This document shows positions 1-39,645 of a stretch of DNA of 64,000 nt, one piece after another (the first letter of the stretch is position 1; each line of letters starts with the position of its first letter). This stretch comes from Amphiscolops sp. MND2022 (Eukaryota), in contig OZ076409.1 of the NCBI GenBank assembly GCA_964187785.1, forward strand, positions 43,774,001-43,838,000, given 5' to 3'. The notes under the pieces are model-generated. The model saw only the letters and a program-made list of their open reading frames with translations. It did no database searches and was not told the origin of the DNA. A program made the translations under genes and the position numbers.

Positions 1-2643
1 CAGCACCGCAATGCCGATGGCTTGAGCAAACGAACCAATGAATATCGATGCCGAGAACAGCAGCTTGCGCAGCTGCCAGCTAGTGGAGAGCGTTGGAACT
101 TCCTCTCTGCCGAGGAATTCGATAACCTCCCCATAGCCCCATGGTTCGACCTGCAAGGTCGAATCATTCCAAATCACCCTGACCTACCACCGCATCTGCA
201 GAACTTGGAGCCTAAGGCTCCTGACCAGGCACTCCGTGTGCTTCGCCGTGTGCAACGTGCGAACAAACGAAAACGACAGGCGGAGGCGTTAGCCGCGCCT
301 TTACCGCCTCAGCCTCCACCCGTGTTGCAAAAGCACGAAGACTTCTACCCAGACTATCCTGAAGACTGGATAGATGTCACCACTGAGGCCAGCGAGGATT
401 ACCTACTACCAACACATGCAGTAAATGTCCCCTCGCGCACCATCTATTCTGTGACGGAAACGAGTAACGCTATGCTACAGAATTCTCCTGGTGGCGTGCG
501 CGAGTCGATCATGGCTCTCAAGGATATCGACACCGAGCTCCATGAACACACACACACCGTGCATGGGATCAAGGACTTGGTTTTAGCCCAAAACCGCGAT
601 GTCCATGTGCTAGCATTGAAAAAGCTCGTGCAGTGTGAGTCCGTGTTTCCCGACAACGTGCGCGAGTTCGCACGAAATTACTTCCGCCAGAAAAAGGATC
701 TCTTGTTCATAAACAAGAATCATGTCCTTTGCGTTCAATACTCCCCCACCCAACGCCCACTGCACGAACGTCCGTGCATGATTATAATGCCTCAATTGTA
801 CCAGCACGAGATTCTGTTCCGTGCACACGACGCAATGGGACACCAAGGCATCTCAAAGGTGGTAGCTCGAATTCAAGAGCGCCACACTTGGCCCGGCATA
901 AGGCGCAGCGTCGGTCGGTACGTCGGCCAATGCCTCACCTGCCAACAAGTACGTGACAAGCCTGGCGACGTACGATTCCAACTGAAAAACATTCAGAGTG
1001 GCTACTTCAACGAGTTGGTCCAATATGACCACTTAAAAATTTGCCCCTCTGATGACAACAACACCGGCATTTTGGTCATCATTGACCATTTCTCTAAATT
1101 TGCAGAGGCAGTCCCTTGTAGTCATCATGACTATGACGCAGTGACTACCTCACGATTGCTGCTGCAGAAACGGTTTGCCCGCCACGGCACCCCCACTCGC
1201 ATGCAATCCGACAATGCCCCCAACCTTACTGCTGAAGTCTCTAATGAGTTTCTAAAGGCAGCTCACGTCACTAAAGTGACCTCCACTGCCGGACATCCAC
1301 GAACTCAAGGCTTGGTGGAACGACAAAACCGTACCCTCTTAACCTTGTTGCGAGTCTTTTGCTCACGTCGCATGCGCGACTGGGACCAGTGCTTAGATGA
1401 AGTGATCGGTGCCTATAATTCCACCAGGCACGCCACTACAGGCTTCTCGCCCTACATGTTAACAAGGGGTGTTGAGAAAGCAATTCCCCTCACCTTTTTA
1501 TACCCTGAATTTGCAGCCAAGTCCTTCGATACGCATGAAGCATACGTGGATCATGTGTTGGCTCGCCAACAAGAAATTCACGACTTGGTTCGGCGCAACA
1601 CGCACCAAGCCCAATTGCGCCAAAAACTGAAATATGATCGTGCTATCCGCGCACGAGCTTACCAGCCGGGAGAGCTCGTCTGGGTTTTTTGCCGCTACGT
1701 GCCGCAAAAAGGCTCTCCAAAATTGATGCGCGCCTGGCGTGGCCCGCACAAAATAGTGCAAGTTTTTCAAGAAGAACGTGTCTATGTATTGGACACAGGC
1801 CAAAAGGTTCATTTTGAGCGCCTGAAACCTCATAATAGTGGGCCCCTTGAGCTCGCCACCGCGCAAGCGGACAGCGGCGAAATCGTGGTACTCATGGACC
1901 CTGATCCTGAACGTTCTATTGAAGCAGTTGACGACGACAAGTCCCAGCCTTCATATAAAACTGAACAACTACTTTCAGAAGCATCTGACGTATCCTTGCC
2001 TTCGCGCAAGCAACATTGGATGGATACCCGTCTGCGCACAAAGTTACGTGCTGGAGGTTCCCGCATGCACTACCAGCAATTTGACTACTCAACTTCGGGC
2101 ACTGACGACGAGTTGTCCGAAGTCATGCTACCGGTACTTCCTGATCCCGCTGATGCCGATCGCAGGGAGCCCGAACCCCAACTCCCTTCAGACCAGTCAA
2201 TATCACCTACCCATCACCTGCCTCAACTATTCTCCGACCATGAGCGCGCGCGCTCTCCGTCACCACGAATATCCTCTCCCGAAAGACAGCCCTCTTTACT
2301 GGGCACATCGGCCCCACTACTGACAAATCCATCACTGACAAGCTTCCTCGACAACTATCCCATTTGGCCGGCCTCCCCTTCCCTTCCTCTAAAATCTGCC
2401 ACTGAGGACGACGACGCTCAGTCCAATGTCCCTACTCTTCCCACAACATTGCCCGGAGCGGGGACCGCTCCTTCTTTTAAAAGGGGGAGGGGGAGACCAC
2501 CCAAAACGCGAAAAAGGCTGGTCAGAGCGAAGGCAAGAACGAGGAAGAAAGAAACTACAACAACGACAATGGGCCGGGGAGAGAGATTATCTACCCGGGA
2601 ATCCTGTATCCAGCCCCAACAGAACACCTCTCATATGATGTGA
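1..2643 (+). CDS. pol: Gypsy Pol C-terminal part (end of RNase H, integrase, AT-hook tail), 5'-partial
   Basis: Frame is open from base 1 (QHRNADGLSK, RNase H end motif). HHCC finger HDAMGH...CLTC; DDE core QYDHL / QSDNA / LVERQN; GPY/F-like WRGPHK; KRGRGRPPK AT-hook at 2479-2505. Confidence 0.93.
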   Translation, partial: QHRNADGLSKRTNEYRCREQQLAQLPASGERWNFLSAEEFDNLPIAPWFDLQGRIIPNHPDLPPHLQNLEPKAPDQALRVLRRVQRANKRKRQAEALAAPLPPQPPPVLQKHEDFYPDYPEDWIDVTTEASEDYLLPTHAVNVPSRTIYSVTETSNAMLQNSPGGVRESIMALKDIDTELHEHTHTVHGIKDLVLAQNRDVHVLALKKLVQCESVFPDNVREFARNYFRQKKDLLFINKNHVLCVQYSPTQRPLHERPCMIIMPQLYQHEILFRAHDAMGHQGISKVVARIQERHTWPGIRRSVGRYVGQCLTCQQVRDKPGDVRFQLKNIQSGYFNELVQYDHLKICPSDDNNTGILVIIDHFSKFAEAVPCSHHDYDAVTTSRLLLQKRFARHGTPTRMQSDNAPNLTAEVSNEFLKAAHVTKVTSTAGHPRTQGLVERQNRTLLTLLRVFCSRRMRDWDQCLDEVIGAYNSTRHATTGFSPYMLTRGVEKAIPLTFLYPEFAAKSFDTHEAYVDHVLARQQEIHDLVRRNTHQAQLRQKLKYDRAIRARAYQPGELVWVFCRYVPQKGSPKLMRAWRGPHKIVQVFQEERVYVLDTGQKVHFERLKPHNSGPLELATAQADSGEIVVLMDPDPERSIEAVDDDKSQPSYKTEQLLSEASDVSLPSRKQHWMDTRLRTKLRAGGSRMHYQQFDYSTSGTDDELSEVMLPVLPDPADADRREPEPQLPSDQSISPTHHLPQLFSDHERARSPSPRISSPERQPSLLGTSAPLLTNPSLTSFLDNYPIWPASPSLPLKSATEDDDAQSNVPTLPTTLPGAGTAPSFKRGRGRPPKTRKRLVRAKARTRKKETTTTTMGRGERLSTRESCIQPQQNTSHMM

Positions 2644-3086
2644 CTGATTTTCTTCAAGTAGAATGTGACATAGTGTTGGCGTGTCCCGCTGACCTAGAGA
2701 CGAACTCAGCTGCCCTACGGTACGTGCTACGAGAATGCGGCAAGGAGAATGTGTTCTCCTTACGTCCTAAGGTGGGGGAGATTCTCACCATTCCTCCCGA
2801 TGTCAACCCAAACCCCAATCAGAGTATTCACTTGCTAATAATCAGAGCAAACCAGCGTGCGCCGCTGCTCGCAGACGACTACCTACGTTGTATGACGCAC
2901 TTGATACAGCGTTTGATGGAGAAGGGATCCACGAGGGTCCACCTACCTATACTGGATCCAGAGCGACCCGCCCTCTCACTAGTAAACTTATATCATACCC
3001 TAACGAATTTGCTGGAGGGTACTGGTATTCACGTGGTGCTACATAACCGCGTGTATGTGTCCATTCTGAACATAGGGCTGGAGTAG
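2640..3086 (+). CDS. Macrodomain-like protein (TARG1/OARD1/Poa1p-type), probably catalytically degenerate
   Basis: By-eye colinearity with TARG1: LSYDVTDFL (in frame just upstream) / IVLACPAD / KVGEILTI / IHLLIIR / GSTRVHLPIL / LLEGTGIHVVLH. The frame is open upstream and overlaps the pol end. Confidence 0.65.
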   Translation: MTDFLQVECDIVLACPADLETNSAALRYVLRECGKENVFSLRPKVGEILTIPPDVNPNPNQSIHLLIIRANQRAPLLADDYLRCMTHLIQRLMEKGSTRVHLPILDPERPALSLVNLYHTLTNLLEGTGIHVVLHNRVYVSILNIGLE

Positions 3087-3363
3087 CCCACCCAAAACAT
3101 TTTTGTTGCCCCCTTATTCAATTTGCCCACCCGATAATCGTCATGCCTGGGAAGAAGTCTTAAACTATCCCATGAAATAATTATTTTGTAACGTAGCGTT
3201 AGATAACTTCTATCTTTGTGTTCTAATTAGTTAGTTGAACTACAATTTAAACTTGTTGCGGTTCCCCTATGGAACCATCTTTGCTGCTGAGTGATGAGCC
3301 TTAAGCTCTCCCTATAATGCACTTGGCAAGCCTAACGGTAATCCTTTTTAGACCTATGATATT

Positions 3364-6300
3364 ATGGCTTATTACCCCAACAACACGGTACCTATTGCCA
3401 CGACGGGACCTCACGCCAATAGGACCCAAGAATTGCCTGCGCGAGCGCAGAGGACTAACCAAGTCCAATACGTTGAAGAGAGATTGAGGAACGGCCTCTC
3501 ACCGTTAGCGGTAGCGGGCGTGGCCGCCCTACTTACCCAACTAGACTCAATGCAGACGCTGCCTGGTGTATCCGTGTCTCTGGTGACGGAAGTAGCCGGT
3601 TACCGTCGCACCCTAACCTGCCAAAACAATGCGTGGGATGGCCACGATCTGACGCACCAGTTCCTAGATGAACGGTCCACCACAATGCTCGGACCCAGCC
3701 AAGGTACGAGATTCGAGCAAGAAGCCTCACTGTGTATGGTGCCTGCCAGCGTAGCAACAATGCCTCCTCCTCCGATGGTCGCGTTGCCCCCACCGGCGCC
3801 AAATTCAGTACCAATGACGCCAACTTATTCCGGTTCGCCTGCCTTTGGGACCTCATATCGAGCGCCGCATATGGTATTACAAACCACTACTAATGCACCA
3901 GTCTCTGATCGGAAGCCCTCGGGGTCCCGGTTGCCACCCATACCCAACCCAGAGCTAATGGGAAGGAGTACCAGCGAACAGGCCGTAATTGTGGCTTTGC
4001 AAGCAGTGGCGAATTATCCCAACTCAACCGATTTTGTCCGTGCCGTGGAGCAGAGAATCCCTGGATTAGCCACGTATCTGCAAGCTTCTGCTCAGCCCGC
4101 GGGCTGTGACCCTCCTGCCCCCTTAGTTGAAACAGCCTCTATGGATATGGAAATTGTCGCTGGACCGAGTAACAGCGCAAGCGCTGCCTCTGGCATACGA
4201 GAAGAAGCGGGAAGAAAGCGGCTGACTGAGGAGACCGCCTCAGTTACCCCAGCTGGCTCGGTGACCGAGAGCCCGACTAGTCGTCCCCCTCCGGACAAGC
4301 GCGCTGATGTACCTCGCTCCCAGCTGAAGAGTGTGGTTATCCCTAGGCCCCCGTACCGAGTAGGCCATCTAGGCCGAAGCGCTCCTCAAATGTCTTTGGC
4401 AGACGCGATCGAACTATATGGAGATCCGGATGCAGGCTCGGAAGTGAGCTCTGTGCCCTCGGGCACCAATCCAACAGCCATGTCCCTGGAGATACCTGAG
4501 ACGGTGGAAGAAGCCCATCCTCCAGCCTTCCTCCCTCCATCTGACGACGTATCCGGCTCAGTAGTCACCAATGATAGCAAACGCATTTGGATGGCGACTG
4601 AGCATCTCTATCCCAGTCAATGTGCTATCAAGAAAAGGACTCCTCCAACTGAAACGGAGCAAAAGGAGATCAACCGGACCACGATACCGGCGCAAGTCAC
4701 ACGCTCGCTCCGCCCCCGTGACGCAGACATGTCGGAGCAGGCTTGGGAACAGCGTGCTCGAGAGCAGCTGCCTATGACAACCAACGACTACATGGCACCC
4801 TTGCAACACAATATCACTGAGCAGTTTCCCGCACGGTATGTGTTGCGAGAGGGTGAGACGTGGGAGGCGAATGCCCGTTACGCCCGCAACCTGAGATCCT
4901 TGAAACCCTTATTGAAAGCAGCTCTGCAGCGTGCGCGCTACTGCATCGCAGTTGATTCCACTTGCCGAAGTGACCTTCCCATTGATAATTTAATGCCTGA
5001 TGTGCTGGTGCTAACTATGCCCCTGTCTCGCTTCGCCGAGGTCGCTGAGATGGTCGGAGCCATATACGATCCAAACTTAAGAGGATCACAAAAGGAACCA
5101 CCCCCACAGCGAGTGATCTTCGCCAATCTCCTGGATCACATGGCTTGCGAAGGATTGCTGCATGACCTGGCCGCGATAATGTCCAATGTCCGACGACTGG
5201 AAGACATTGCTGCCCTGGTGAACGAGGTGGTTGGTGCAATGGAACGTGCCGCAGGGATCCTTCGGGGTCGTCTGGGAGCGCTCGCGCTCTTTGTATCCCC
5301 ACCGGGATTCATGTATTGGCCACGCAGTCTGCAGCAGTTCGTCTACATTCTGCTGGAGGTGTGCAAGGCGCGCAGAGTGGAATTCGCCATCTGTGCACCG
5401 AACTTGCGCGTGGATCGAGAGGACCTGCGCCCGGATACCATATCATATCCTGCCTTCTTTGCCGCTGTATCTAGAGCGCTGGTGGCTATAGAACGCTCGG
5501 GAAACGCCCAGCTCACCATTGACGATGCCATCCTCTATGACTATGGAATGCGGATGGGCAGACTGGCCTTTGACCTTGACGGCAACCGCACCGCCCGAGA
5601 ATCCAATGTAACTGAGCGAGAGGCTGTTCGCCGGTACAATTGGCTAGTGCGAAAGGATAAAGAAATCCCAGTGCGCGCAGAATTAGCCGATCTGACGAAG
5701 CAAATTGGTGCATGGCCTGCGGCGCGCACCGTCGAAAGAACGATTCCTCAGATCCGCTTCGCCTCGGGAATCGAGCCCGTGAAGCTGCCTGTAGGGCTGC
5801 GATGTATCATAGCAATAGAAGCAACAAATCTGAAAGCAGAAGTCGACGCCGCAGCTACAACTTATGCTCATTGGTACCAGACTAGGTTTACCACTAGAAC
5901 TCTGGCAGAAGTAGCTCGAGAGCTCGGTTGTCCATTGGAAGCCTTCTGTACCAGTCTCGGTCTAGGATGGAACCTAGAGGTGCTAACTTCTGAGTTCTCG
6001 CTGACCTCTACGCAAACGGACAAATTGTTAGAAACAATTGGGGAGGCAATCGTCGGAGAAATACCAGCGCTCGCGCTAGCGATGGGCCCAACCAAGTTCG
6101 TAGCCGGACCACTGGCTTTGTTAGTCGACATGGTAATTGCCTGCGACCTAACCATGTTCTACAGCTACTTGGTCCTGGCACAAGGACAACTACGCAGTCT
6201 GACCCGTTGGGGTCACTTGATGACTTCCAAAGACCAGCAGGACTATTCCGCACAACTGGAGCGCATGCGTGCGTCAATCCAGCACTGGCTATACTCCACC

Positions 6301-7671
6301 CTGGTGTTCGCCTCCGGCCTATTCGTGGGCGTAGACCAATCCCAACCACTCCATAATCCCAACCAGCAGATTTCCCGGGAAACGGCAGGATTCCCCATGC
6401 CGCAGCAGATTGCAGACCTCACCCTGGCAGAAGTAGAAGACTTTGTGGCGGCAATGGCTCCTGTCTTGGCCCCTATCTTTGGCGCAGTGGGCGTGTGCCG
6501 GTACCCAACAAAACCATTGGCAACGGCCGTCCAAGTGCACATGGTCTCCTTCAGCACTTATCTGCGAGGCCGTCCTTCACTGGCGTATCCAAGGGTGATA
6601 CATGCAGTGCTGAGTGGTGAGGTGCCGCATGGGTACACGACCATAAAATCCGAAAGAGAGTTGGAGGAGAACTTGATGGGCTTGCTGCGCGCGCGCACCA
6701 GGAAAGCATGTCCTCTACCCCGGGAGCATGGACCTGTGAACTGGTATTCCGCACCTCTCAGTTTGGAAGGGGTTCCCTTTAGGTTCCCCTGGAGTCAAGT
6801 GTTCGTGAGAAAGGTGATTCGCGCCAGCACTAGTGCTGGTCCACCCGTGGATCCTCTATACTGCTTCAAATGCATCGCCTTCCCAAATCGTTACTGGAAG
6901 GAGCCGTTAGGTTGGCCCAGGGCAAAACCCTTTGGACGCGCCCCAGAAGTGTTCAACCGCCAAATCCAACACTTGGAGTCAGCCCAGATCCCAGGATGGA
7001 TTGAAGGCGCTGCTCAGATTAGGCAGAGAAATCTCCAATCCCGCGTCATTCCATTCCCCAGGAAGTCGGCATGGAAGCCTACGGGAAAGATGACCATGTC
7101 TGGAGATATGTCCATCGTCCAGCATGATGAGATAAATTCCGTGTTGGGCTCAACAGAACGAGCGCGATGGGAAGAATACTGTCTAGAGTTGGAGATTGCA
7201 AGCTTCCCTAAATGGAAGAGAGCTTGCGAGCTCTGGAGCCAATCTGGATGGATCTCACGCCGTGTAGCACTAGCGGTCGAGGGTAGAGCAGAGATGGCGA
7301 GACAACAGGCGTTCGCGCCTACCATGCTCGCACCCACGATGGCGATGTCCTTGGATCGGCCCATCTCTCAACCGATCACCATTAATCTTCCAACCCATGA
7401 CTTGGAGCCAGACCCAGTTGGCCCGTCTTCGTCGCGAACGAGCCCTGAGTCCTCACAGCAGCAATCCGGAGAGCACACTGCCGAATTGACTCCCAATGCA
7501 GCACTAGTGCAGCCTATTGCCGAGTTGTCGCTCCCCGAAAGTCCGTCGGACTGTGAAACAGCTACAACCGGAGTCTCTCCCCGACGTCGAGCGTCAGTGT
7601 CGACCGACAACCCAGAACAGAACTCAGATGATGCCACTAAAGAGCGGACCCGACGCAGTTCAGCTCAATAA
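3364..7671 (+). CDS. 1435-aa accessory ORF3 of Gypsy A; low-complexity P/S/T termini, central SGNH-hydrolase-like segment
   Basis: Uninterrupted 4.3-kb ORF between pol and the 3' LTR. SGNH-like blocks IAVDS, VLTMP, VIFANLLDH, FVSPPG, EDLRP at about 4939-5480. Confidence 0.8.
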   Translation: MAYYPNNTVPIATTGPHANRTQELPARAQRTNQVQYVEERLRNGLSPLAVAGVAALLTQLDSMQTLPGVSVSLVTEVAGYRRTLTCQNNAWDGHDLTHQFLDERSTTMLGPSQGTRFEQEASLCMVPASVATMPPPPMVALPPPAPNSVPMTPTYSGSPAFGTSYRAPHMVLQTTTNAPVSDRKPSGSRLPPIPNPELMGRSTSEQAVIVALQAVANYPNSTDFVRAVEQRIPGLATYLQASAQPAGCDPPAPLVETASMDMEIVAGPSNSASAASGIREEAGRKRLTEETASVTPAGSVTESPTSRPPPDKRADVPRSQLKSVVIPRPPYRVGHLGRSAPQMSLADAIELYGDPDAGSEVSSVPSGTNPTAMSLEIPETVEEAHPPAFLPPSDDVSGSVVTNDSKRIWMATEHLYPSQCAIKKRTPPTETEQKEINRTTIPAQVTRSLRPRDADMSEQAWEQRAREQLPMTTNDYMAPLQHNITEQFPARYVLREGETWEANARYARNLRSLKPLLKAALQRARYCIAVDSTCRSDLPIDNLMPDVLVLTMPLSRFAEVAEMVGAIYDPNLRGSQKEPPPQRVIFANLLDHMACEGLLHDLAAIMSNVRRLEDIAALVNEVVGAMERAAGILRGRLGALALFVSPPGFMYWPRSLQQFVYILLEVCKARRVEFAICAPNLRVDREDLRPDTISYPAFFAAVSRALVAIERSGNAQLTIDDAILYDYGMRMGRLAFDLDGNRTARESNVTEREAVRRYNWLVRKDKEIPVRAELADLTKQIGAWPAARTVERTIPQIRFASGIEPVKLPVGLRCIIAIEATNLKAEVDAAATTYAHWYQTRFTTRTLAEVARELGCPLEAFCTSLGLGWNLEVLTSEFSLTSTQTDKLLETIGEAIVGEIPALALAMGPTKFVAGPLALLVDMVIACDLTMFYSYLVLAQGQLRSLTRWGHLMTSKDQQDYSAQLERMRASIQHWLYSTLVFASGLFVGVDQSQPLHNPNQQISRETAGFPMPQQIADLTLAEVEDFVAAMAPVLAPIFGAVGVCRYPTKPLATAVQVHMVSFSTYLRGRPSLAYPRVIHAVLSGEVPHGYTTIKSERELEENLMGLLRARTRKACPLPREHGPVNWYSAPLSLEGVPFRFPWSQVFVRKVIRASTSAGPPVDPLYCFKCIAFPNRYWKEPLGWPRAKPFGRAPEVFNRQIQHLESAQIPGWIEGAAQIRQRNLQSRVIPFPRKSAWKPTGKMTMSGDMSIVQHDEINSVLGSTERARWEEYCLELEIASFPKWKRACELWSQSGWISRRVALAVEGRAEMARQQAFAPTMLAPTMAMSLDRPISQPITINLPTHDLEPDPVGPSSSRTSPESSQQQSGEHTAELTPNAALVQPIAELSLPESPSDCETATTGVSPRRRASVSTDNPEQNSDDATKERTRRSSAQ

Positions 7672-21548: not shown

Positions 21549-23284
21549 TGTCGTAAGCATTAGAGTCTACTACGCCATCATTTTGGCGGTTACAATTAGG
21601 CTTACTAGTTGAACTGTCCTTAGGGTTACTATTTTGCAGTCCTTCGGAGTATACTTCCGGTCTCTCGGACGAAACGTTCCATCTACTCTGAGTCGAGAGT
21701 CCCGATCCGGCTCTTAAGGCGCACTGAATCTGAGGCAATATCTGATTGCTGATTGCATCACTAATCGCCCTTTGAATCTGGGAATTGACACTACACATCA
21801 TATCATCTAACTCCCTCGACAGTCTCGAGTTCAACTCGCTTGACATCTTGTTAATCTCAGCACTAGAATTACCTCCAGTTGAAATCTGGCCATAATCGGC
21901 ATTATTACCAGGACCTAAGTCTCTTGTGGCTGAGTTTCTATTTTCACCATTATTCTCTAATTCATCTGCAGAAGTACTACCCGGCCTTCTGCCAAAATTA
22001 CTGCTAACACTTTCATCTCTCTCATTTCTACCGAAATGGTTTTCCCCTAACATAATATCGAGGTTTTCTATGTCAGACAGCATTTCTATTCCTCTTGACT
22101 TCCTGGCCTTCTTTTGTCTTCTTGTAGTAGGCATTAAGAATTCGAGGTTGAATAATTTATTGGTGGTCTAGGTTTGCAATCTATAAAAGCGGAACAAACT
22201 AAGTTTGAGTATCATAAAGACAATTGTGTCCACCTCTCGGAACGGGTAGGTATATTTACTTCCGAGAGAATGGAATTTACATATTTTGATATAATACCCG
22301 CAATTTACAAATTCCTTAAGTCACGAGGTTAAGGCACAACACTGGTTAAAATGAGGCGGTTAGCACCTTATCAAAGAACTCTAGGAATTCATACTTGTTA
22401 GGGTCACGAAGTTATATCTTTCCATTTGAAAACATCAACGATATTACTATACGTCATCATAGTTGAGTAGCATCGGCAACAAACTTCAAAAAAATACATA
22501 ACACAACTATCTAAGGAATGTTCATTACGGAATGCTGCCACGCGCCTGCAAATGTCGGCCGTTGCAACAAACAAGTAGCTTTAGCGTAAATCACGAAACA
22601 AAGCACAACATGTCCTAAATCGGCCGTAGGACTTTAATTCATTCAGAGTGAATAGCCTAGTTAGTCCAAAGGACTGGTACTAAGAATTGGGTTGGTATGG
22701 GGGTACTAATTATTTCAAAGAACGTAAAAGCACTAATTATTAACTTCAGGTGTAAATAGAGAGCTTACATGACTATTGAGCACTACAACATTATTAATAC
22801 AATAAGCTACAACAATGACTAAAGCAAAGCCTAATCCGGCCATCTGCCTGGTATTCCAACTAATTAATGCACCATTAAGACAAACGGACATATCCGGCCA
22901 ATTGATTAGAACAGTATTACATCATGAAATACTCGAATATGATTGGTTGGTACATTAGGCTCAAGTGACGCTTTCGGACTGAAAGCTACGTACACTCGAA
23001 TTCGTTTCCTTTAAGCTGTTTAGTAGCTTGCGTTGAACTATAATTTACATTGAGCATTGTTATTTTACAACTTGCAACTTCACTTGTCTAATGTATTATT
23101 AACAGACTAATACACAGTGTATCATAATGAAAATGTAGTTGACCTAGGCAAACATAAATATTGAGAGTAAGTTTTAGAGTTTAACATAAACCTGTTTAAA
23201 ACGTGGGTAGGGTTCCGGGTATAATCTCCTGACTGCCAGCTGAGGTCGTTATTAGAGTGCCATCACAGGCGGCAGCCTGCGACA
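21549..23284 (-). repeat. 3' LTR of Gypsy B
   Basis: Near-identical to 42387-44122 (about 14 substitutions by eye, no indels seen). Confidence 0.96.
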
Positions 23285-23981
23285 CTGCGGGTGTTATGAA
23301 TAGAAAAGAGCCGGCATTTAATCCATTCTCATAGGCCTCTCTCCTGATTCTCGTTATGTAATCCGGCTCTCTTCGTGGTTTAGATCTCTCGACGTACCAG
23401 TCCACCTTTTCCTTTTTGATTGCCTCCACTGACCTGCCACAAACCATACAGCCAGAATACAGCCTCGTACTGACGTTTTCATAGGGTCTTGTATTCTGCA
23501 CGTGAAAAGAGGCGTGGAAACCTCCCATTGCTGGCTGCATAATAGGAGTGTCTGAGCTAGGCCCTCTCTCGTGATCAGGGGGTGACATTGGTGTGTCTGG
23601 GACTGGCAAGAAAGTTTTGCAGATTTCTATGCGCGATTTTCCTGCTTTTTTCGGCGGGGCGTAACACATTTCTTTGTCGAAATATCTGTGGTCCAACTTT
23701 GGGGTAATATCAGATTGTACTTGAGCCGAACTTGGAGCAGCTTCTAGTTCGTCTCCCGCGGGTTCGTCCATAGTCATGATCCTGCCCGCTATTAGCATGG
23801 GACTTGACGTGACTTCCCTTTCGATTCTTGCCACGAGCTGCTCTGTATCCGTGGAGCAGTCTGTTTCCCAGTCAGATGATTTATCTTCGTCACTAGATAT
23901 GTAGATGACGGATCTTTCGGAGTCATCAGAGTCCGATTCTTCTAAGCCAAACAGTTTCCTTGAGAGGTTAAACTTGCTCAT
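23196..23981 (-). CDS. Gypsy B 3' accessory protein (261 aa from ATG 23981): acidic, SIM-like VIYISSDED, CxxC; stop inside the 3' LTR
   Basis: Open frame 23196-24020. Its C-terminal VSQAAACDG is conserved as SQTSACDG in the diverged solo LTR ending at 48704. Confidence 0.65.
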   Translation of the reverse strand: MSKFNLSRKLFGLEESDSDDSERSVIYISSDEDKSSDWETDCSTDTEQLVARIEREVTSSPMLIAGRIMTMDEPAGDELEAAPSSAQVQSDITPKLDHRYFDKEMCYAPPKKAGKSRIEICKTFLPVPDTPMSPPDHERGPSSDTPIMQPAMGGFHASFHVQNTRPYENVSTRLYSGCMVCGRSVEAIKKEKVDWYVERSKPRREPDYITRIRREAYENGLNAGSFLFITPAVSQAAACDGTLITTSAGSQEIIPGTLPTF

Positions 23982-25028
23982 TATGATTTTCTTGGCAATT
24001 TTCGAAGCTAGCTGAGTCAACAGTTTGTCGGTGAAACATGATATAGAATGAATTTATCAATTTTAGGAGGCTAGCCGAGTTCGGCCTTTTCCCCGACAAT
24101 CCGTTTTGGCGGTAGAATTCCTCGGTTGATTCTCCCAATCCGACGTAAACATTTCTGAATGGAATTTCATAATTAGTCGGCTATCTTTGATGATTCAATG
24201 TTTACCCCTCATCAACAACACCGCTTGGAGAGGTGTGAATAACACTCAAGTTGTTAAAACCAACTTCATGATTTTCAAGTGGGTAATTAACAGGTCGCCT
24301 GAAGGTAATTAGCGGAGTGCGCCGTAACTTCTTCTTAACATGGCGTTAACCAATCAGATTCTTCCGTAGATAAATTGAAAAATTAATAAATAAAATGGCG
24401 GAAAATAATAACTCCGAATAATCCAAAATGGCGAGTTTCTAATTAAGGGTAATAAGGGCAACTGAACAAAACGGTAAAGTGAAACAATGCAAATGGCCAT
24501 AATCGGCCATTAACTAGATAGGCTGCAAATAATGAAGATCTTTGTACATTTCGCTGGCAGAGTCCATGTACAGAATGAATAAATATGTAAATAAACAAAT
24601 AGTATTAGTCTGGTAAATTTCTTCAGCCACGAACTCCAACTTCTAATTCTATTACCCCATTTTAATTCCAGTTCAATTCCGATTATTTTACTACTGTTTC
24701 TTTATCCGGAATTCTTCATCAAACAGCTTTCGCTACTCATCTTCAGCCTCTCCAACAACCTTCCTCCCTGAAGTATCCCCGGGACCCGTCCCTAATCCGG
24801 ATTTGGCCAAATTCTACATCTCTGGAGTCTGATTGGTTCGACATTGATAGGCGAAGCAGAGCAGAATGTCTTCAGTTGAAGGTTGGTTTGCTTTGGTTTT
24901 GAACTTAATTTAACTTGATCAAGGCTAAATTTGTTCACAAAATGCTTCCTGCTCCCATCTGTAAACACGTGAAAACACGATTTTATCAAATTTTCAAAGT
25001 ACTTCCGGAAGTTTTCTAATGCGGCAAA

Positions 25029-28000
25029 ATGGATTTCTTTCAAGGAAGCTCACCGCCAAATTTCATCTCCTTCTGTTTAGAACATCAGAATGTTGATGAA
25101 CCACAAGTCCAAAGCAACACTACAACTGGCAATCCCACTGGGCCTCTTCAACGTTCAGTGCCTATTTCAATGACCAGCAGTGTACCTTCTCCCCCTCCAT
25201 TTCCCCCAATTAGAGCTGTTCTCAGTCAAACGATGCCAATGGCTGTTGATTCTCCCTTCAGCAACATTGATGTCACCACTTATGCGGATGAGATGGGTCA
25301 TCGGATGGAAATTTCCCAAGGCCTCATCGGTGATGATCTTGCTCGCCACGATGAAGAAGGTCCATTTACGGCCCAAGTCCCAGCTGCACAGGCCACAATT
25401 CAGGATCCTGAGTTTGTACGCTCAAGCACTCCAAATCCATCTAACCAGCCTGGGGCTATAGTAGTCAGCCTTTCCCAGCTTGAATCATCCCTCTCAGTTG
25501 TGCCAAGGACACAAGCTGACCTCCCTGAATTACAAGTCAACCAGGACCAGACTCAAGAGGTGTCTGAAGCTTCATTCCTTCAATCTGAAGAGAATGCCTC
25601 ATCTTCAGTCATCGAACCGCCGCCACTTCCTGGGAGAAATGAGCAGACCAAAGTCTCAGGAGAACAAAGTGACACCAATCAAACGCTGGAAAGTGCAAGT
25701 CATTCCGAAATCCCTGCACTGTATGGAACAAACCCTTTCGACTCTGTCCCACTATCTGGAGGAAGTAGCGAATCTGGATCTGAGAATCATGACCCGGGCC
25801 TACCGGGCACGTCAAGGGCAGGCCTACCGGTACAAGGAGAAGTTCTACGAGATCTGTCAGGACTAGGTAGAGCAACCCTGAAACAGTATTTTGAGACTGA
25901 GGACCCATACACCTTCCCAGTCGGGCAAAGGGTCGTTGTCTTCACTGAGCCACAAGTCTACAATTTACTCCGAGTTTTGACTGATGAGGCTATAAACATG
26001 ACTTGTTCCACTATGGAAAAGATGGTAATTGGAGCTGTCAGTGGGTCACTTGCAACAGCCCCTTCACGGACTGGAAAATTTCGGTCAGTAACTCGCTCCT
26101 CTACTCCAGGTCCCAATCAGCGCGTTGGATCCAGCTCCGAAAAGGATTCAGACTGAATATGATTCAGGGTCAGGATCCCAAGCTGACACGAGTATGTTTC
26201 AGAATGTCAGCGATTTCTTCAATCCTGATGAGAGTGATGGTGCCACGGAGATGGCCCTAATTAACCAAGCCTTCGGCATAACCGCTTCTGGGAGTTCTCC
26301 TCCTATACCACAACCGAGACAGTCACAAGGCCCTTCCGAGGAAGGAACTGAGTCAGCTGAGAAGAGTAGCCTCGATGTCACATTATCTGAGGTCCGTAAC
26401 CGGTCTTGTGCCCAGAAGCCCCGTCAGGCAGTTGTGGCATTTAAATCCACCAGAGCCAAGAGGGGACCAAAGCGCGGAGTACCCATGAGGGAGGAGTTTT
26501 TCTCCAAGATAAAGTGGACGAGGTCTTTCATCTCAGGGCCAACTGATCCTCTCCACAACCCACACATGGTATGGTGCCACATGTGCAAGAAAAACTTCAG
26601 CATTAAAACCAAGGGCACCGTTGAGATCTTACGCCACCATAGAACAGAGAAGCACCTACGTCGTGATCAAAGGTGGAGATATGAGCACCTCAGAACACCT
26701 GATTCGGTGACCGGGAAAATACAACATCGGGTTCGTGGGAGGAATGTCAAAATCCTCAATAAGAGTGAACTAGCCCATGAACTGCCTAAATTCATCCACA
26801 CTGAGCTCATCGATGTAAGAGAGAGACACCCCTTTTATGAGGATTATCTCCATAGTGAAGGGCCATACTTCCGCACCTGTTACGCCTCAGTCGCGGTTGC
26901 AGACTCAGATTTGTCTTGTTGGAGACTTTGTTCAAACTTCGGGAGACCTGGCTCTACTTCGTAAACTGTGGGCGAGGGCTGGCAACTACACAGGGTACCA
27001 AGCAGCCTTCCAAGACTTCGATTGGAGTGAAGATCATATAAAGGTAAGTTTATTCAACTGTTCTTCATAGAGTCATGGTTAGCATAACAGGGGGTTGGAA
27101 AAGCAGCAGCACATAGTCTCCCAATTTTGTTCCATTTCAGGCCGTCTTCCAGCACATCTTCAATTGCATGATGGAAGACATATCCAATCAGGTTGCCGCA
27201 TCCCAACATTTTGGGATCGAATTTGAGAAGAGGGGGACCAATCGCTACATGTCCCTCCGATTCTGGAATGGTGCTCAGCTTTGTCGGGTCTTCATCTGCC
27301 GGAGTGGTCTTACCGGCACTGGGCTTAGTGAAGAACTGGGCTCTCTGTCACGGCTGTTGTCCGTCATTTCTACAACCCCCGATGTAGTCGCCATCTCAGG
27401 ATGTGCCGTCGACCTGATCAGGGCAGTGGACAAACATCCCACTTACCCTCGGGGTGTGCAGACCTGCTTCCGCTTCGAGTGCCTCGACCTCCAATCGCTG
27501 ATGCACAAGATGAATTACAGTGTGTTTGGCCACATTGACATGTTCTCGGTGCTTCAATGCCTGCTAGTCTCACTTGGAGGATGCCTCTCAGAAGACTGGG
27601 TCGTCGAATCAGCTGAACTCGTTCGAGTAAGTTCACTTTGTGAATTCAGTCTGTAAGGTACTAGTGTGCAAAGATAAACCACACCAATTGGCCTTTTGAT
27701 CCTAAGGGCTGTAATGTTCTAGGCGATTACAACTTCTACACTCGAAGTGAAAAGGATACCAGATTTGTGCCGGGACCTGCTGAAGAAGTGGAAGTCAATT
27801 CTGCGATACCTCTCAGTCCATTCCCGCAGACAGGAAAACCAAGGAGTCCACAATAAGGTTACACCTCTTTAATGGTACTTATTTCCTTTAGGAGGAGTTC
27901 ATGCTAATTGCCACCCTTTTGGGAATGTGGGCAGAGTTATTTGTCTCGTATTCCCCGTGTCTTTCACAGGTCCAGAGTTTTGAGTGGTCTCTCATCATGG

Positions 28001-29288
28001 ACAACTTCTTCACTGCCAAATTAGAGCTGTTCCAGCGCCTGGTCAGCGATTGTGAGTATTTCCTATTTCGTGGTAGTCACTTTGGTCAGTTGTCCTCTTA
28101 AGGGCTTTTATCTTTTGTATTTCAGACGTCACCAGTTTCGCTATCAATCTAGCTCAAAGACGGGACGCTTCCTTCTTCCTGTGCGGGGAGATATGCAGGT
28201 ACATTAATCGTCTCTGTTTTCGTGTTTTCCGACCCGACACCGTGCCATTAGAAAACGCCTGGTTTCTGTTAATGGACTTCCAGCTTGGTCAAGGCACAAT
28301 TATGGACGATGAAGACTTCCTAGTGCGTCTTAAGATAGCCAGCAGGGTTGTCACTGCCTGTAATCTGAAAGCAGCCGGACTCCACTTTAACAAGAAGTCC
28401 AGTACGGCAGCCATTGCCAAAACAGCTGAGGTGGCGAAGTCAGATTTTGTGTCCAGCGCCAAGGACTTTATCAAATTTCTGTTGGCAGGGGTCCTTCAAC
28501 ACACAGAGCTCACTTCTGACCTTATCAAGGGATTAGCCGCGTTCGACCCCTTTATTTTGTTCCAAAGACCTATGGAAGTTGCTATACGCCATTTCGATTA
28601 TTTGTATTAGACATTCCAGTTGCGTTCCTGGGTCTCTGCATCAAATGAGTCGGTTTGCCGAGATGAATATGTGGCCCTGTTGGCCTATCTCCGTGCTAAT
28701 CATTCTACTGAATTCGTTTCCACCAGTCATCCTCCTGATCTCATTGACTTTTTTATGGGCTTAGATTTCCTTCAAACTCACGACCACATTTGTTACTTGT
28801 TCAAGCTGAGCTGTTTGTGTATAACATCTGTTAGCCCCGAGTATCCCCCAGTGTCTTTTGGGAAGATTGACACGAAAGGACTTCAGTCTCGTTTGGCAGA
28901 CGTTATCTTGCCCTGCCAAAGTTACTTGACATCGGTGCCTGATTCCCTGCTTGCCTGTTGCACTGAGTCCCGCCTTGAGAAGTTTTGTCATTTGTCCACT
29001 TCGTTTGGACAATCAGGCTTTGCCGCCAATTATGACCCTTGGACCTTCGTAGACGGTTTCGGCCGTTCTGCTATTTACAAGACTCTTGTGGCTTCTTATC
29101 GTTCTGTTCTCGCTGGGTCGGACTTCCATTTTAGGAGTCCCATTCTTCCTGATGTTTCTTCTGTGCAAGACGCACCCGCTGTCAAACTGCCTAGTGAAAA
29201 CAAACGTAGACGAATGAGAAGGAGTTGTTCCCGTAGCAGATCCTCATCTGTCGTTGAAGAGTCCCCTGCTGGTGGCTCTAAAACCTAA
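25029..29288 (+). pseudogene. Antisense spliced gene inside Gypsy B: BED zinc finger plus degenerate hAT-transposase-like protein (about 1290 aa reconstructed)
   Basis: Exons 25029-27043, 27141-27626, 27723-27857, 27970-28051 and 28126-29288 are joined by four GT-AG introns that all preserve frame. Two +1 frameshifts (about 26150 and 26860) and a TAG at 28608-28610. Confidence 0.8.
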
Positions 29289-29533: not shown

Positions 29534-32500
29534 CTAGTATCTGTAGCCTTCTGAGTAGTTTGGGTTGGGATTAGGCCTGAGATTATATTTCCCTCTTCTA
29601 GGACTCAGGCTTTCATTTCTAGCATCGTTTTCAGATATTTCGGGCATCAGAATAATATCATCCCCCTTGTTTGGAGAATTTTGTGTATCGTTTTCATTCG
29701 TCAATTTTCTTTTTGAAAAATTTTCATCGTTTTTCGGTCTATCTGCCGTATTCGGCAATGATTTTTCTTGGTTTTTTGGGGAAACGGCCGGATTCGGCCA
29801 ATTGGATTCTTCATTTTCTGTGACTGCAGTAAATTCATTTCCTTCAGTGACGTCATTATTTAAGTGGTCATTCCGGCTGTGCGCCGCATTGTCATTGATC
29901 GTTACTTCTCGCGTGATTACGTAATCCGCTTCATTCTCGGTTACGTCATTTGTACTCGTTTCTGCCGCATTCGGCCGTTCGCCATTCGGCATGTTGGTCG
30001 GAATAGGTTCGCTGTCTCGTGTAACTAGTTGCTCGCCAAAGTCGGTTTCCCACGTTATGACGTATAAATCATCTTGCGGAATGACAATTTCTTCATCTGG
30101 CTGCAACTGTTGTTCTCGGAAATTATCCTCAAGCGGTTGATTGGGGACAAACTTCTTAAGACGATTGCGATGCAAAATTTTAGTTTTGTTCGTATTGATC
30201 CGTCGTACTATATAGTTTTCATTTGGCAAAACTTTTTGGACTACAAATGGTCCAACCCAACGGTAATCGCGGAATGGTTTTTTTGATCCTTGATTATCCG
30301 CTTTATGCTGTAAGACAAAACAGTATTCGTTCTCCTTTAGTGGAGCGGCTTTTGCTTTGCGGTCGTAATATTCTTTGTACTTGATATACGACTGCATAAT
30401 GTTCTGTTTGGTTTTGTCAATTAGGATTTTTGTCCTATATTGGATTTCTTCAGCAAATTCGGTTGTAGGGTTGATTTTTTCGTTTGGATTATTTCCAAGC
30501 TTGTGATCCAGAATATTATAGGGAATTCTGCCATGGAATACCCTTGTTGGTTCACAACCGATGCTGGTATGATAACTAGTATTATGATTAAGTACTGCTA
30601 ATGGCAAGTATTTATGCCATTGTCGGCGGTATTCCCCGCATGCCATTTTGAGATTCGTCTTTAATGAGGCATGGGTCCGCTCTAATTTCCCAATTGTTTG
30701 TGGGTGTTTTGTCGTTGCACATTTGAGTGTGATACCCAAAATCTGCGTAACCTCCGCAATAATTGTAGAAGTAAATGCTGTACCTTTGTCAGTAATAAGA
30801 GTTGTTGGCAGATATGAATGTTTGGTCATGATGTCAATGATCGCTTTTGCTACATTGATCGCTGATGAGTCCGTAAGAGGATATGCGAACAAATATCTGG
30901 AAAATACGTCGATTGCTGTTAGGACATTCTCGTACCCTCCACTTGGGGGAAGATTCGGCAATAGGTCGATTTGCATGGCGTCTTCAGGTCCAAGGTCCCA
31001 TTCGGGCAAGTTGAGTAGCTCAGGTGTGATCGTTGCGTTAGGGACTCTCTTGTCTCTGACACATTGTTCGCACCCTTCTACCCACTTTTTGACGTGCTTA
31101 GCCATGCTAGGGTAATAATACCTCTGTCGAATTTCCTGCAGCATTTTTGAAATCCCAGGATGTTTATGTGCTGTCCCGTGAAAGGATTGTAGTAATTCCT
31201 GGAGTAAATGTTGCGGGAGCAGAATTTGATGGTATTTAACGTTCCCTGTTTCATCAAAATATTGCCTTACTAGGATTTCGTCCTTTAGTACAACCCGTTC
31301 CAGATTGTTTGCGTAATGTCTACATCGGGCATCCTGGTGCAGTAAATTTTCTGAATACTCTTCATGAAGCAGTTTTGCTTTCAATTGCTGTAGAACTGCA
31401 TCTTTTGATTGTTCGATAATGATCTGGTTGGTTTTCCTCAATCGGACTTGTATATCGGGGTGTTGCTTGACTAGATTTGTTGACAGAGTTTGTATAGTAA
31501 CAGTGGGCTCATCAGTTGTTGGATTTTTCCTGATTGCTTCTTTTCTTGCCCACAACTGCAAGATTTGTTCTTCTTGCGACACTCCTGCAGATTGGACATT
31601 GATTTCAATTGGTAGTGTTTGTACATCTTCGCGAATTTTCATCACCAATTTGTCCTTCGGGTCTGCTTCCAATCGGGACAAATATTCGGCAGCTGTATTT
31701 TGTGCCCCTGGGATGTGTGCTATGACAAAATTAAACTGAATGACATAATCACACGCGTTCCACAGGGCTGGGGGTATTATTTTTGTTTGGAAAAATCTCG
31801 TGACAGCTTTGTTGTCAGTAAGGATGATGACCGGTTTTGGCGCACCCTAGAAGATATGCCCGAATTCTTTGAATGCAAAATAAATTGCAAGGAATTCTTC
31901 GGCATAAATTGACATTTTAATCTGTGCTGGGGTGAAAGTTTTTGATCCATATGCAACTGGTGCATACGATTTTCTGAGTGACGTAAATTTCTGGTTTGGG
32001 TCGTCTTCGATTAGGACCGCGTACCCGGCTGCACCAAAACTTGCATCAGTCATTAGTGCTATTTGTTTGTTTGGAATGGGTTGCTGTAATGCCAAGTTGC
32101 AACACTTGTCGAGTGCTCTGTTGATTTCTTCGTATTGTTGGACTAATTCTTTCGATACTAGGACCTTTTCGTCATTTTTGAGCATCTTGTAGAATGAAGC
32201 AAGGCGTTCGGAGAGTCTTGGGACATAATTCCTGTAGTAGTTTAGGAATCCCAAATATCGTTGTAAAGCCTTTTTCGACTTCGGGAATTTGGTCTTTTCC
32301 AGAAAGTTTTGCACGTTCTGTTTCTGGGGTTTGACGCCTTGTGGGGTAATAGTTCGTCCGAGAAAATCAATTTCTTTTGCACCGAAGTGACATTTGTGCA
32401 TTGTTAACTTAAGGCCTGCTTCCTGAATGCATTTGAACGAAGCTCTCAGGTTCGTCATGAGGTGGTCTACATCATTGGCTGCGATGCCGATATCGTCCAC

Positions 32501-34023
32501 ATACTGGGCACACTGGTCCGCTTTAATGACTTTGTCAAGGTATTCTCTCATGAAACTCGAGAATGCGGATAGTGACCGACTAGGTCCTTGTGCCAAACGT
32601 CTGTAAGCGAATGTGCGACTGGCAAAATTGAAAGCCAACATTTCGATTGAGCGTTGGTCGGCCATTGGTAGGCAATGGTATGCCTGCGAACAGTCTAATT
32701 TACTGAACAGTTTTTTGCCTGCCAAGTGTTGGGCGGCATCAACTAGTGTACTGACGGGTTGATTGTTGTTGATATAATCATCCGAAATGAGGTTGTTGAT
32801 TTTTCTCAAGTCAACCAAGAGTCGGAGTTTCCCATTCGGCTTCTTTTGTGCAAATATTGGACTCGCGTATTTCGAAAATGGGAGTGTAGTTATTATGCCA
32901 TATTTGTGTAACATGGCTAATTCAACTAGGATGTCCTCTTTTAGATTGATAGGAGCTGGGAGGCTTTGACTATAGACTGGGGAATCGTCTTTAGGCGTTA
33001 GTTTCACCTTGAATTCCTCGTTCATGCCTATATCAAATCGGTGTCGTGCAAAGATGTCATGGAATTCTACTAACAGTTCCTCAATCTTCTCCTTCTCTTC
33101 AGGAGTAAGGGTGGAATCTTTCCAGTCAAAATTTTCTAAGAATTTTGCACGCGATTCTGCATCTGTAGTGGGGTCGAGTGTCTCCAGGTCCTGCAGGGCC
33201 TGCAACTCGCGTAGGATTCGTTTTTGTATAGGTGTGTGTTCCTCAGGATTTCCAGGATTCGCTGGAGTTGGGAATCAATAATTTTCGGAGTTTTGTGGAT
33301 TTCTATTGGTCTTGATGAGGCTGCTGATATAATGGGCTGCTTGCTCCTGGTCATTCTGCAAAAGGTGCCAGGTTGATGCCGGGTCTATCGGTTTGACGTA
33401 TTTCATTTGTTCTGGCGTCATTACTGAGAAATTGGCTATATGAAGTCCCTTTTTTAGTTTATAAGGGTGGTCCGTGAAATTATTCACAGGTATTGATATA
33501 CTGCCATTATTCAAGGTGACCAGGGCTGGGCAGAATGTGATGTCGCCTTCTTTATGTAGAAGGTCGCTCGGTTGCAAAATCCCAGTGACAGCATTTTCAG
33601 GATATAGTAAGGAATTAGTCCGAATTAGGACTCTGTCATTTGGCGGAATAGTTATTTCAGCAGGGTTGAGGATTGGTTCAAGTACGTTTGAGTACTTATG
33701 GTCAGCTGTTTTGAGCTGCATTGAAAAGAACGGGAAATTCAAAATTCCTTGTCTCATGTCCAGTACTGTATGATTTCGTTGAAGGAACATTAGTCCAATG
33801 ATCGGTCCCGTTAGATTCTCCATTATCATGAAGATTTCGTGGAACTCAATGTCACCAACCTCAAATTTGAGCTCTATGGTACTCTTAGAAGTTTCCAATT
33901 GGCCATTTGCGACCATTATTTGAATGTTCGGAGGCGGACCTTCTCGTATAACTGATTGTGGTGATAGGAGTCGGATTTTCCGGAGGTCCATTTCAGGGAT
34001 TGCACTGGAAAGTGCTCCAGTGT
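29534..34023 (-). pseudogene. pol: Gypsy B pol: protease (C-terminal part), RT, RNase H, integrase
   Basis: RT QYVDDI, LDCSQAYH; RH LMTDAS...TDNK; IN HGTAHKH..CEQC, QIDLL, ITDKG, KLERTH, WVGPF. In-frame stops at 33275 (TGA) and 31847 (TAG), both plausibly ex-Trp codons. Confidence 0.95.
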
Positions 34024-34947
34024 TGTAACGGCTGCTTGCCTTTATCCTGCGCTGAGGCTTGACAAGCCTTACGCCGCCCTGATCCGTTGCTTAGTGCTGT
34101 GGACCGTCACTAAACAATTCCTGGTTTTCTTGTTTTAAAGGACTGTATCTTTCAGCTTGATGGGTCCGATGTGACCCGTGGAATCTCCTGCGATCCCTCT
34201 TTTCACTGAATTGGATCCGATGTGATCCGTAACACACTTCCCTCACAGTATCTTCACGCGCTCCGGCTCTCCAACTATGAGAGTAGCTACTTAGTCGCTC
34301 TGACTCTAGCGAAAAGTTGTGAAGATTGAGAAGTTGATTAATTAGTCTCGCGGTCCTGAGACCCAACTTGACTATAGCTATTCAGTGGAGAAAATCTCTA
34401 TCTAATAATGGTATACATATGGTTTACAATTCTACAGTAAATATAAGCAAATATCAGTTGAAATATGTTGTATAAATAAATGACATTTAAGTGAATTATT
34501 AAAGTTATTGGCTATGTAAACAAAGAATGTGGTGGTTTTGGCATGTTGGTCAGGTGGGCTCAGAAGCATGTTTACACTATGTAAATATCATCAATTGCAA
34601 CAGAGCTGCATTCTAATGTGGTCAGAAGGGTAAATAGCAATGTTTACATTTTTGTCTCAATGACCTTGAATACTACACATGTGAGGGGTAATGGGGGTTA
34701 TAATGGGGGAATGACCTTGAAACTTAGCCGGTGTGTCCGTATTATGTACTTGCATATGTGTGCCAAGTTTCAAGTCTCTATGGTTAATAGTTGTAGAGAA
34801 AATCCCGACTGGGGGGGGGGTTTCGATTTAGCAAGGTGAGGTTTTCGTTCAAATTTTCATCTAAGTTTCGAAGAGTTTTAAGTTCTTGTTTCTCAACCAG
34901 CATGTTCTAAATCGACTTTCTCTGCTTTCTGATGACTGGCGCCAACA
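34024..34947 (-). repeat. BEL 3' LTR (924 bp)
   Basis: TG...CA termini; about 10 differences from 39646-40568 by eye. Confidence 0.95.
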
Positions 34948-39242: not shown

Positions 39243-39276
39243 CTCTTCTCTTGTCGATTGAGTTTAGTTCCAAAGT

Positions 39277-39492
39277 CACAATAGCCCAAACTCCCAGAGA
39301 CACAATAGCCCAATCTCCCAGAGACACAAAAGCCCAATCTCCCAGAGACACAATAGCCCAATCTCCCAGAGACACAATAGCCCAATCTCCCAGAGACACA
39401 ATAGCCCAATCTCCCAGAGACACAGTAGCCCAATCTCCCAGAGACACAGTAGCCCAATCTCCCAGAAACACAGTAGCCCAATCTCCCAGAGT
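39277..39492. repeat. 24-bp tandem repeat x9 in the BEL 5' UTR
   Basis: Head-to-tail cacaatagcccaatctcccagaga units. Confidence 0.95.
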
Positions 39493-39626
39493 CACAAAAT
39501 CAGCAACTCCAAGATCCAGACACTTGTTCTTCTTGGGCAATCTTCTCAGTTGTCCACCAACGAGTCGTCTTCTTCTAGTCCGGGTCGTCCACCAAAGAGT
39601 TGTCCGGGTCGTCCACCAACTAGTGG

Positions 39627-39643
39627 TCCGGGTCGGCGGACCA
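39627..39643 (-). promoter_or_regulatory. BEL primer-binding site (tRNA-Tyr-like)
   Basis: TGGTCCGCCGACCCGGA, 2 nt after the 5' LTR; resembles the typical BEL PBS TGGTCCTTCGAGCCGGA. Confidence 0.7.
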
Positions 39644-39645
39644 AA

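Follow-up and report, generated by a model that had tools for sequence, protein, structure and literature searches.

GDSL open reading frames (ORFs) in retroelements have been reviewed (PMC6431247), and several described systems invite comparison with the one reported here. In Vesta1, a long terminal repeat (LTR) element of bdelloid rotifers, a non-Env ORF with the SGNH fold lies downstream of pol, and an auxiliary or membrane role has been proposed for it; its GDSL domain is described as having intact catalytic residues and no transmembrane segments (PMC5408684). The same account describes GDSLs that lack catalytic residues in the Athena-L Penelope-like Terminons, which belong to a different retroelement class and are likened to our case by description only. 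The ORF1 protein of ZfL2-1, a non-LTR element of the CR1/L2/RTEX type, carries an SGNH domain within a multi-domain accessory protein; it is described as an active enzyme whose esterase binds acidic phospholipids but fails to bind oligo-(A) RNA (PMC3905857). Lipid targeting has been proposed for retroelement SGNH esterases (PMC3905857, PMC5408684), in which catalysis and binding are not known to have been separated. Here we analyze a 64,000-nucleotide stretch of the genome of Amphiscolops sp. MND2022 (contig OZ076409.1, positions 43,774,001 to 43,838,000 of assembly GCA_964187785.1; hereafter the window, to which all coordinates refer), in which a Ty3/Gypsy-type element carries an intact accessory ORF of 1435 codons (3364-7671, plus strand) whose product is predicted to contain an SGNH-fold domain without the catalytic His.

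Comparison with these systems separates what is already known, namely that Vesta LTR elements have a GDSL ORF3 and that Athena-L has dead GDSLs (PMC5408684), from what is added here: an intact full-length architecture, a bridging protein (P0314) that joins the family to GDSL esterases, a conserved hydrophobic segment and a splice-acceptor-like motif. The initial annotation of this locus overlooked the published GDSL/SGNH ORF3s of LTR retrotransposons. In contrast to Vesta1, the catalytic triad and oxyanion hole are lost here, and the domain is part of a 1435-aa protein that also contains other, unassigned domains and the hydrophobic segment. In the literature searched, Repbase entries, supplements and subscription papers aside, no dead SGNH ORF was described in an LTR element, and neither "esterase" nor "SGNH" occurs in the main text of PMC13524379 or PMC6338049.

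The region of amino acids (aa) 498-712 (4855-5499) is predicted to adopt an SGNH hydrolase-like three-layer alpha/beta fold with its blocks in I-II-III-V order. An AlphaFold2 model of aa 481-1160, built with 101 sequences, had a mean pLDDT of 73, with values of 74-98 in the alpha/beta domain. A search of 48,161 chains with this model gave a top 50 in which every row aligned to the alpha/beta domain, over 144-199 residues with Z of 7.2-9.9 and rmsd of 3.2-4.6. GDSL or SGNH is named in the titles of 11 of these rows, and the remainder (PAF-AH, OatA, PatB, CE2/CE3, AOAH, OSK and others) we take to be SGNH-fold proteins; ZfL2-1 was absent from the 50 listed matches. A second structural comparison agreed, with Z up to 10.3 (PAF-AH, Z 10.1; TesA, Z 9.2). 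The SGNH fold suggested by the initial annotation is thus borne out by structure prediction and structural search. The 101-sequence model replaced one built with 18 sequences (pLDDT 42.6), whose matches, all below Z 8, were a mixture of SGNH, enolase and STAS proteins.

The active site is altered at nearly every catalytic position except the nucleophile. The YCIAVDS motif starts at 4939, and the codons of Ser532, Asp591 and Arg689 lie at 4957-4959, 5134-5136 and 5428-5430, respectively. Counting residues aligned at a posterior of at least 0.8, among copies that are not independent of one another, block I retains D531 in 86 and S532 in 85 of 92 copies. The Gly of block II is present in 3 of 100 and the Asn of block III in 1 of 100, in a register taken from the motifs and from P0314. 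In block V, Arg689 replaces the catalytic His in 97 of 106 copies, as the initial annotation had claimed; His is found once, in a 205-aa fragment, and the acid Asp in 11 of 108 copies. All five SGNH motifs proposed in that annotation were found in their places, except that VIFANLLDH does not read as GxND: the Gly position holds Asn, and the Asn position Leu, Phe or Ile. The whole TesA chain (1-178) covers residues 43-230 of the model, a span that, if ungapped at its ends, would align S532 with the nucleophile and R689 with the His. When 15 bacterial SGNH domains were compared by hhalign without guidance, DLRP was likewise paired with DGIHP, weakly (P 0.008; two control regions 0.11-0.13), and an hhalign comparison with TesA singly was blank (E 0.49). 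Judged by these residues, the classical SGNH enzyme is dead and the domain is a pseudo-esterase, because the base His is Arg and the oxyanion Gly and Asn are lost while Ser532 is kept.

A protein found through the pol search, P0314, provides a sequence link between the family and SGNH proteins. P0314 contains an intact GDSL domain at aa about 405-570 (PF13472, 33.6 bits against a cut-off of 32.9), with GDS, GG, GTND and DGIH all present. About 300 aa later and in frame, aa 855-1022 are homologous to the dead domain (family profile E 7.6e-6 at Z=1e6; BLAST 26%, E 7e-7), with block III still reading GIND. From aa 1021 onward, P0314 is 93-97% identical to pol proteins of the P0315/P0317 family over their integrase-macro part. 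The arrangement hints at an active-plus-dead esterase pair in a sister family.

The ORF itself is clearly open and lies in an identifiable element. It runs through 1435 codons without a stop; the other five frames of 3364-7671 contain 30-73 stops each, and at this composition a frame of that length would stay open by chance with a probability of ~1e-24. It lies 3' of the RNase H end and integrase of the element (Integrase_H2C2, E 8e-16; rve, E 3e-8, by Pfam), whose 5' half falls outside the window. With the integrase region as query, 70 long relatives were retrieved. The closest full-length pol relative, P0251 (3113 aa, 91% to the integrase region of the window), has in a single frame a PNMA-like Gag, protease (PR), reverse transcriptase (RT), RNase H (RH), H2C2 and rve integrase (IN), which is the Ty3/Gypsy order, and by this PR-RT-RH-IN order behind Gag the element is classed as a Ty3/Gypsy-type LTR retrotransposon. 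Since intact relatives have one gag-pol ORF of about 3000-3100 aa, the 1435-aa ORF is the second ORF of the element, in the env position. The initial annotation was therefore right to place an intact, accessory non-Env ORF in the env position of a Gypsy element, and wrong to number it as a third ORF.

Upstream, the window contains the 3' part of a Ty3/Gypsy-type pol (1-2643, plus strand), comprising the RNase H end, the H2C2 zinc finger, the integrase core and a disordered tail. Positions 1-2535 are 84% identical to P0251 aa 1769-2618, and a macro-like domain at 2481-3086 (plus strand), which forms the end of the gag-pol polyprotein in relatives, is 84% identical to P0251 aa 2940-3113. Because ~320 aa of P0251 have no counterpart in the window and the macro-like part sits in a frame other than that of pol, pol of this copy is broken near its end, while the accessory ORF is whole. 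The macro-like region is matched by 55 of the 70 long pol relatives and by a profile made from the ends of P0318, P0314 and P0313 (E 7e-17), and P0318 matches Pfam Macro (E 6e-5); macro ORFs have been reported in fish epsilon-like endogenous retroviruses (PMC4977317). In another pol relative, P0254, PNMA-like Gag stretches and zinc knuckles each occur twice, which suggests that its gag is duplicated. Between pol and the accessory ORF, a splice-acceptor-like motif (3332-3351, plus strand) consisting of a branch-point-like CTAAC, a pyrimidine run and AG ends 12 nt before the ATG. The motif suggests that the ORF is translated from a spliced subgenomic mRNA, and no more than suggests it, because the pattern was picked after the site was seen and occurs 27 times in the 64 kb (15 on the plus and 12 on the minus strand). 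Candidate polypurine runs lie downstream of the ORF, at 7881 and 8104.

The accessory protein belongs to a large family. Its four clusters at 90% identity have 491, 581, 657 and 173 members, fragments counted, and no named protein was found among the 40 members read per cluster. When 1.84 billion representatives were searched with a family profile, there were 639 matches at E <= 0.001, with identity as low as 26-34% among the 150 listed. The source records looked up were all from ENA except for one NCBI fragment; this fragment, P0198, is filed as a hypothetical protein from a Bacteroidota metagenome-assembled genome on an 816-nt contig, and is probably eukaryotic contamination of a bacterial bin. 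Of the 248 family proteins fetched, 18, including that of the window, have at least 1400 aa, and long open ORFs persist in relatives at 36-37% identity. Searches of Pfam, NCBIfam and PDB sequences with the 1435-aa ORF matched no family, the ESM Atlas gave no usable match for aa 500-760 or aa 760-1310, and viral and metagenome contigs yielded no related DNA loci. Longer relatives sought with the domain alignment numbered only four, all close.

Conservation within the family differs by region. Compared with P0010, the core is 82% and the arms are 64% identical (Fisher p 4e-12), and compared with P0022, the SGNH domain is 45% and the arms are 28% identical (p 6e-5). In the most distant comparison, it is the SGNH domain that retains most identity (32% versus 23%, p 0.01). 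This region-specific protein conservation, the sole measure of selection used, argues for purifying selection on the family and against the neutral evolution that the initial annotation had named as a possible refutation.

Other parts of the protein, all encoded on the plus strand, show a similar alternation of conserved and variable regions. A small conserved N-terminal domain of no known family (aa 26-105, 3439-3678) is 81% identical to P0010 and 43-45% to P0022 and P0075, compared with 29-31% for the arm that follows. This arm (aa 106-400, 3679-4563) is Pro/Ser/Thr-rich and, like the C-terminal arm (aa 1301-1435, 7264-7668), probably disordered by its composition and low conservation, in agreement with the initial annotation. 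Just after the SGNH domain is the highly conserved motif L-T-x-D-D-A-x-x-x-D-x-G (aa 717-728, 5512-5547), with D721 in 103 of 108 copies, A722 in 105 of 107, D726 in 104 of 107 and G728 in 105 of 108. It is followed by an all-helical domain (aa about 800-983, 5761-6312) that is confidently modelled, with pLDDT blocks of 78-96 over aa 801-970; it had no match among the top 50 rows (Z at least 7.2) of the search with the whole aa 481-1160 model. A homodimer prediction for aa 495-985, in which the alignment was not used, gave no answer (score 0.00). A basic, aromatic-rich conserved region (aa 1086-1250, 6619-7113) has 25 K+R compared to 13 D+E and 18 W/F/Y, and is poorly modelled (pLDDT mostly below 50); its composition makes it a candidate for contact with nucleic acid or acidic lipid.

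By hydropathy, the window copy has neither a signal peptide (best 12-residue value in the first 40 aa, 0.06) nor a C-terminal anchor (the top hydrophobic segment lies 390 aa from the C-terminus). The initial annotation was correct on both of these points but missed this internal segment, an uncharged and conserved stretch containing P-I-F-G (aa 1027-1045, 6442-6498). No other stretch of the window protein is as hydrophobic, and the same holds for six of the eight further family proteins scanned; in proteins with N-terminal extensions, the segment ranks second or first. Of 94 copies, 87 reach a hydropathy of 1.6 or more and 79 lack a charged residue, and P-I-F-G is near-invariant; four soluble gag-pol proteins, taken as a control, peak at 1.29-1.44. 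The segment may be membrane-inserting or a buried helix. The extensions, found in the gene calls of two subfamilies (P0058, P0061, P0066, P0023, P0071, P0072, P0076, P0078 and P0081), are hydrophobic, contain Cys and add 35-65 aa before the shared start; at the corresponding place the window copy has an in-frame stop. They may be a genuine leader, or the acceptor region may have been read through.

To account for these features, we tentatively favor a lipid- or membrane-binding scaffold that would tether or traffic the ribonucleoprotein (RNP) or particle of the element, an explanation that we regard as plausible though somewhat short of probable. Binding of lipid or membrane, instead of cleavage, is likely because the catalytic histidine is lacking, and phospholipid binding by ZfL2-1 provides a precedent for the mechanism. 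The gene would be expressed from a spliced subgenomic RNA; the kept Asp-Ser together with the new Arg would form a pocket for an acyl or anionic head group; aa 1027-1045 would serve as a membrane anchor inserted from the cytosol; Gag or RNA would be contacted by the basic region together with the disordered arms; and the scaffold would thereby aid particle assembly or transport. Such a protein would probably have originated from a captured GDSL esterase that then lost catalysis.

Several observations weigh against this scaffold or the evidence on which it is built. Foldseek found no match at E <= 0.001 in the PDB or viral libraries, although SGNH proteins were frequent among the weak rows in both; the structural Z values are moderate; and none of the 101 family members, and none of an earlier set of 20, matched an SGNH Pfam family. 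P0314 is one chimeric gene call in which the Arg falls on the junction and could be attributed to either side. A match by eye of P0314 to the N-terminal domain of the family was rejected, with 45 of 401 decoys scoring as high. The contrast between core and arms is not significant against the near-identical P0001 (p 0.30), and the within-genome evolution of the rotifer Vesta GDSL ORF3 is reported to show no significant departure from neutrality (PMC5408684). Lastly, aa 1027-1045 may be a buried helix because it contains two Pro and two Gly and is modelled with low confidence (pLDDT 45-51).

An RNA scaffold similar to the OSK domain of Drosophila Oskar (PDB 5a4a), in which the dead SGNH domain would bind element RNA and the arms would drive germ-granule-like condensates, would draw on the fact that OSK is also a non-catalytic SGNH fold beside long disordered regions and is reported to bind mRNA in vitro (10.1101/2025.05.02.651258), and the basic, aromatic region would suit such a role. 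However, OSK ranked 48th of the 50 structural rows, behind ordinary esterases (Z 7.4, rmsd 4.5, 157 residues aligned), indicating that the domain is SGNH-like and not specially OSK-like, contrary to the initial annotation. Asp replaces Ser in OSK (PMC10792757), whereas the element family keeps Ser and has Arg in place of His, and the two likely lost catalysis independently. For OSK, a largely positive or hydrophobic surface is described (10.1101/2025.05.02.651258), whereas the window domain is net neutral (26 K+R and 24 D+E), as it is in all seven representatives (K+R minus D+E, -2 to +6). In addition, the Pfam scan showed no LOTUS, RRM or other RNA-binding domain. We consider an OSK-like scaffold unlikely.

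Further roles are suggested by two accessory proteins, other than Env, that Ty3/Gypsy elements carry: CERV of C. elegans Cer1 (RNA export; PMC10309623) and sORF2 of the Drosophila MDG1 group (cell-to-cell transfer; 10.1101/2025.03.14.642691). No SGNH fold figures in their descriptions, and it is by description only that they are set apart. The acceptor-like motif ahead of the ATG and the Ser/Thr/Pro-rich arms would fit a nuclear regulator which, like CERV, is made from a spliced RNA and exports unspliced genomic RNA or shields the element from silencing. No sequence link to CERV was seen, none having been searched for, and a conserved hydrophobic segment suits a nuclear protein less well, making this role decidedly unlikely. 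The same segment and the env position would fit an Env-independent transmission factor, anchored in the membrane and helping particles to cross between cells. Here the comparison falters on sORF2 being a short transmembrane protein, in contrast to the 1435 aa of our protein and the lack of a signal peptide in the window copy, and we give the idea very little credence.

A rewired active enzyme, that is, an acyltransferase or slow hydrolase using Ser532 with His592 or Arg689, is equally hard to sustain. Retention of S532 is accompanied by that of H592 (94 of 100 copies) and C595 (94 of 105), and in some SGNH enzymes the acid is described as replaced by a main-chain oxygen. However, two deep subfamilies (P0211 and P0232) have Tyr or Asp in place of H592, both oxyanion residues are lost, and the Asp-Ser pair doubles as a structural Asx motif, so continued catalysis appears very unlikely. 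A diverged Env or neutral debris, for which one could cite the env position, the hydrophobic extensions of two subfamilies and a fold model that leaves out aa 1-399 and has low confidence at aa 985-1309, is already largely refuted and scarcely credible: Ty3/Gypsy Env is described as an ectodomain with a signal peptide on one side and a C-terminal transmembrane anchor on the other (PMC13524379), neither of which hydropathy shows in the window copy, although a leader might be added by splicing, the sole R-x-K/R-R site is at aa 1428, no F-type or gB-type fusion protein was listed for aa 481-1160 (lists that one domain fills), and conservation is strongly region-specific with long ORFs open at 36-37% identity. 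The non-Env assignment of the initial annotation is thus supported.

The remainder of the window contains several other mobile elements. A minus-strand Gypsy element has its pol at 29534-34090, and antisense to it are several exon-like ORFs (25020-29288, plus strand), one with a weak zinc-ribbon match (E 0.014); four pieces of this region had no Pfam match at E <= 0.01. Between gag and pol, this Gypsy element seems to be interrupted by an element of the BEL/Pao type, which makes an animal host likely and whose ORF (34893-39263, minus strand, within 34024-40568) has DUF1759, protease and DUF5641 matches and no RT match, and lies between direct repeats 5.6 kb apart and 98-99% identical, adjoining a 24-nt tandem array. 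Downstream of the minus-strand Gypsy, a 285-aa ORF without a Pfam match (23196-24053, minus strand) is possibly another accessory ORF. Two 99% identical repeats (21549-21848 and 42387-42686), over the start of its gag, are candidates for a second partial copy or an LTR. Finally, a protein-primed-type DNA polymerase B ORF (DNA_pol_B_2, E 5e-14) faces a 262-aa ORF with short repeats at 58960-63320, presumably a Polinton-like or related DNA element.

Beyond the favored scaffold, the protein could found a new class of Env replacement, derived from a tandem active-plus-dead pair minus its active half and combined with the helical domain and a membrane segment, that takes particles to or across membranes. 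We regard this as quite improbable; if true, it would let a very high-copy Gypsy family spread between cells without an envelope gene. Also of note are the helical domain, which is modelled with confidence, and the C-terminal half, to which no family is assigned. Unrelated retroelements repeatedly capture SGNH esterases, and a long-conserved family in which catalysis is lost and yet the fold is the best-conserved part, together with the active-plus-dead pair of P0314, offers a natural test of whether binding, and not hydrolysis, is what the element needs.

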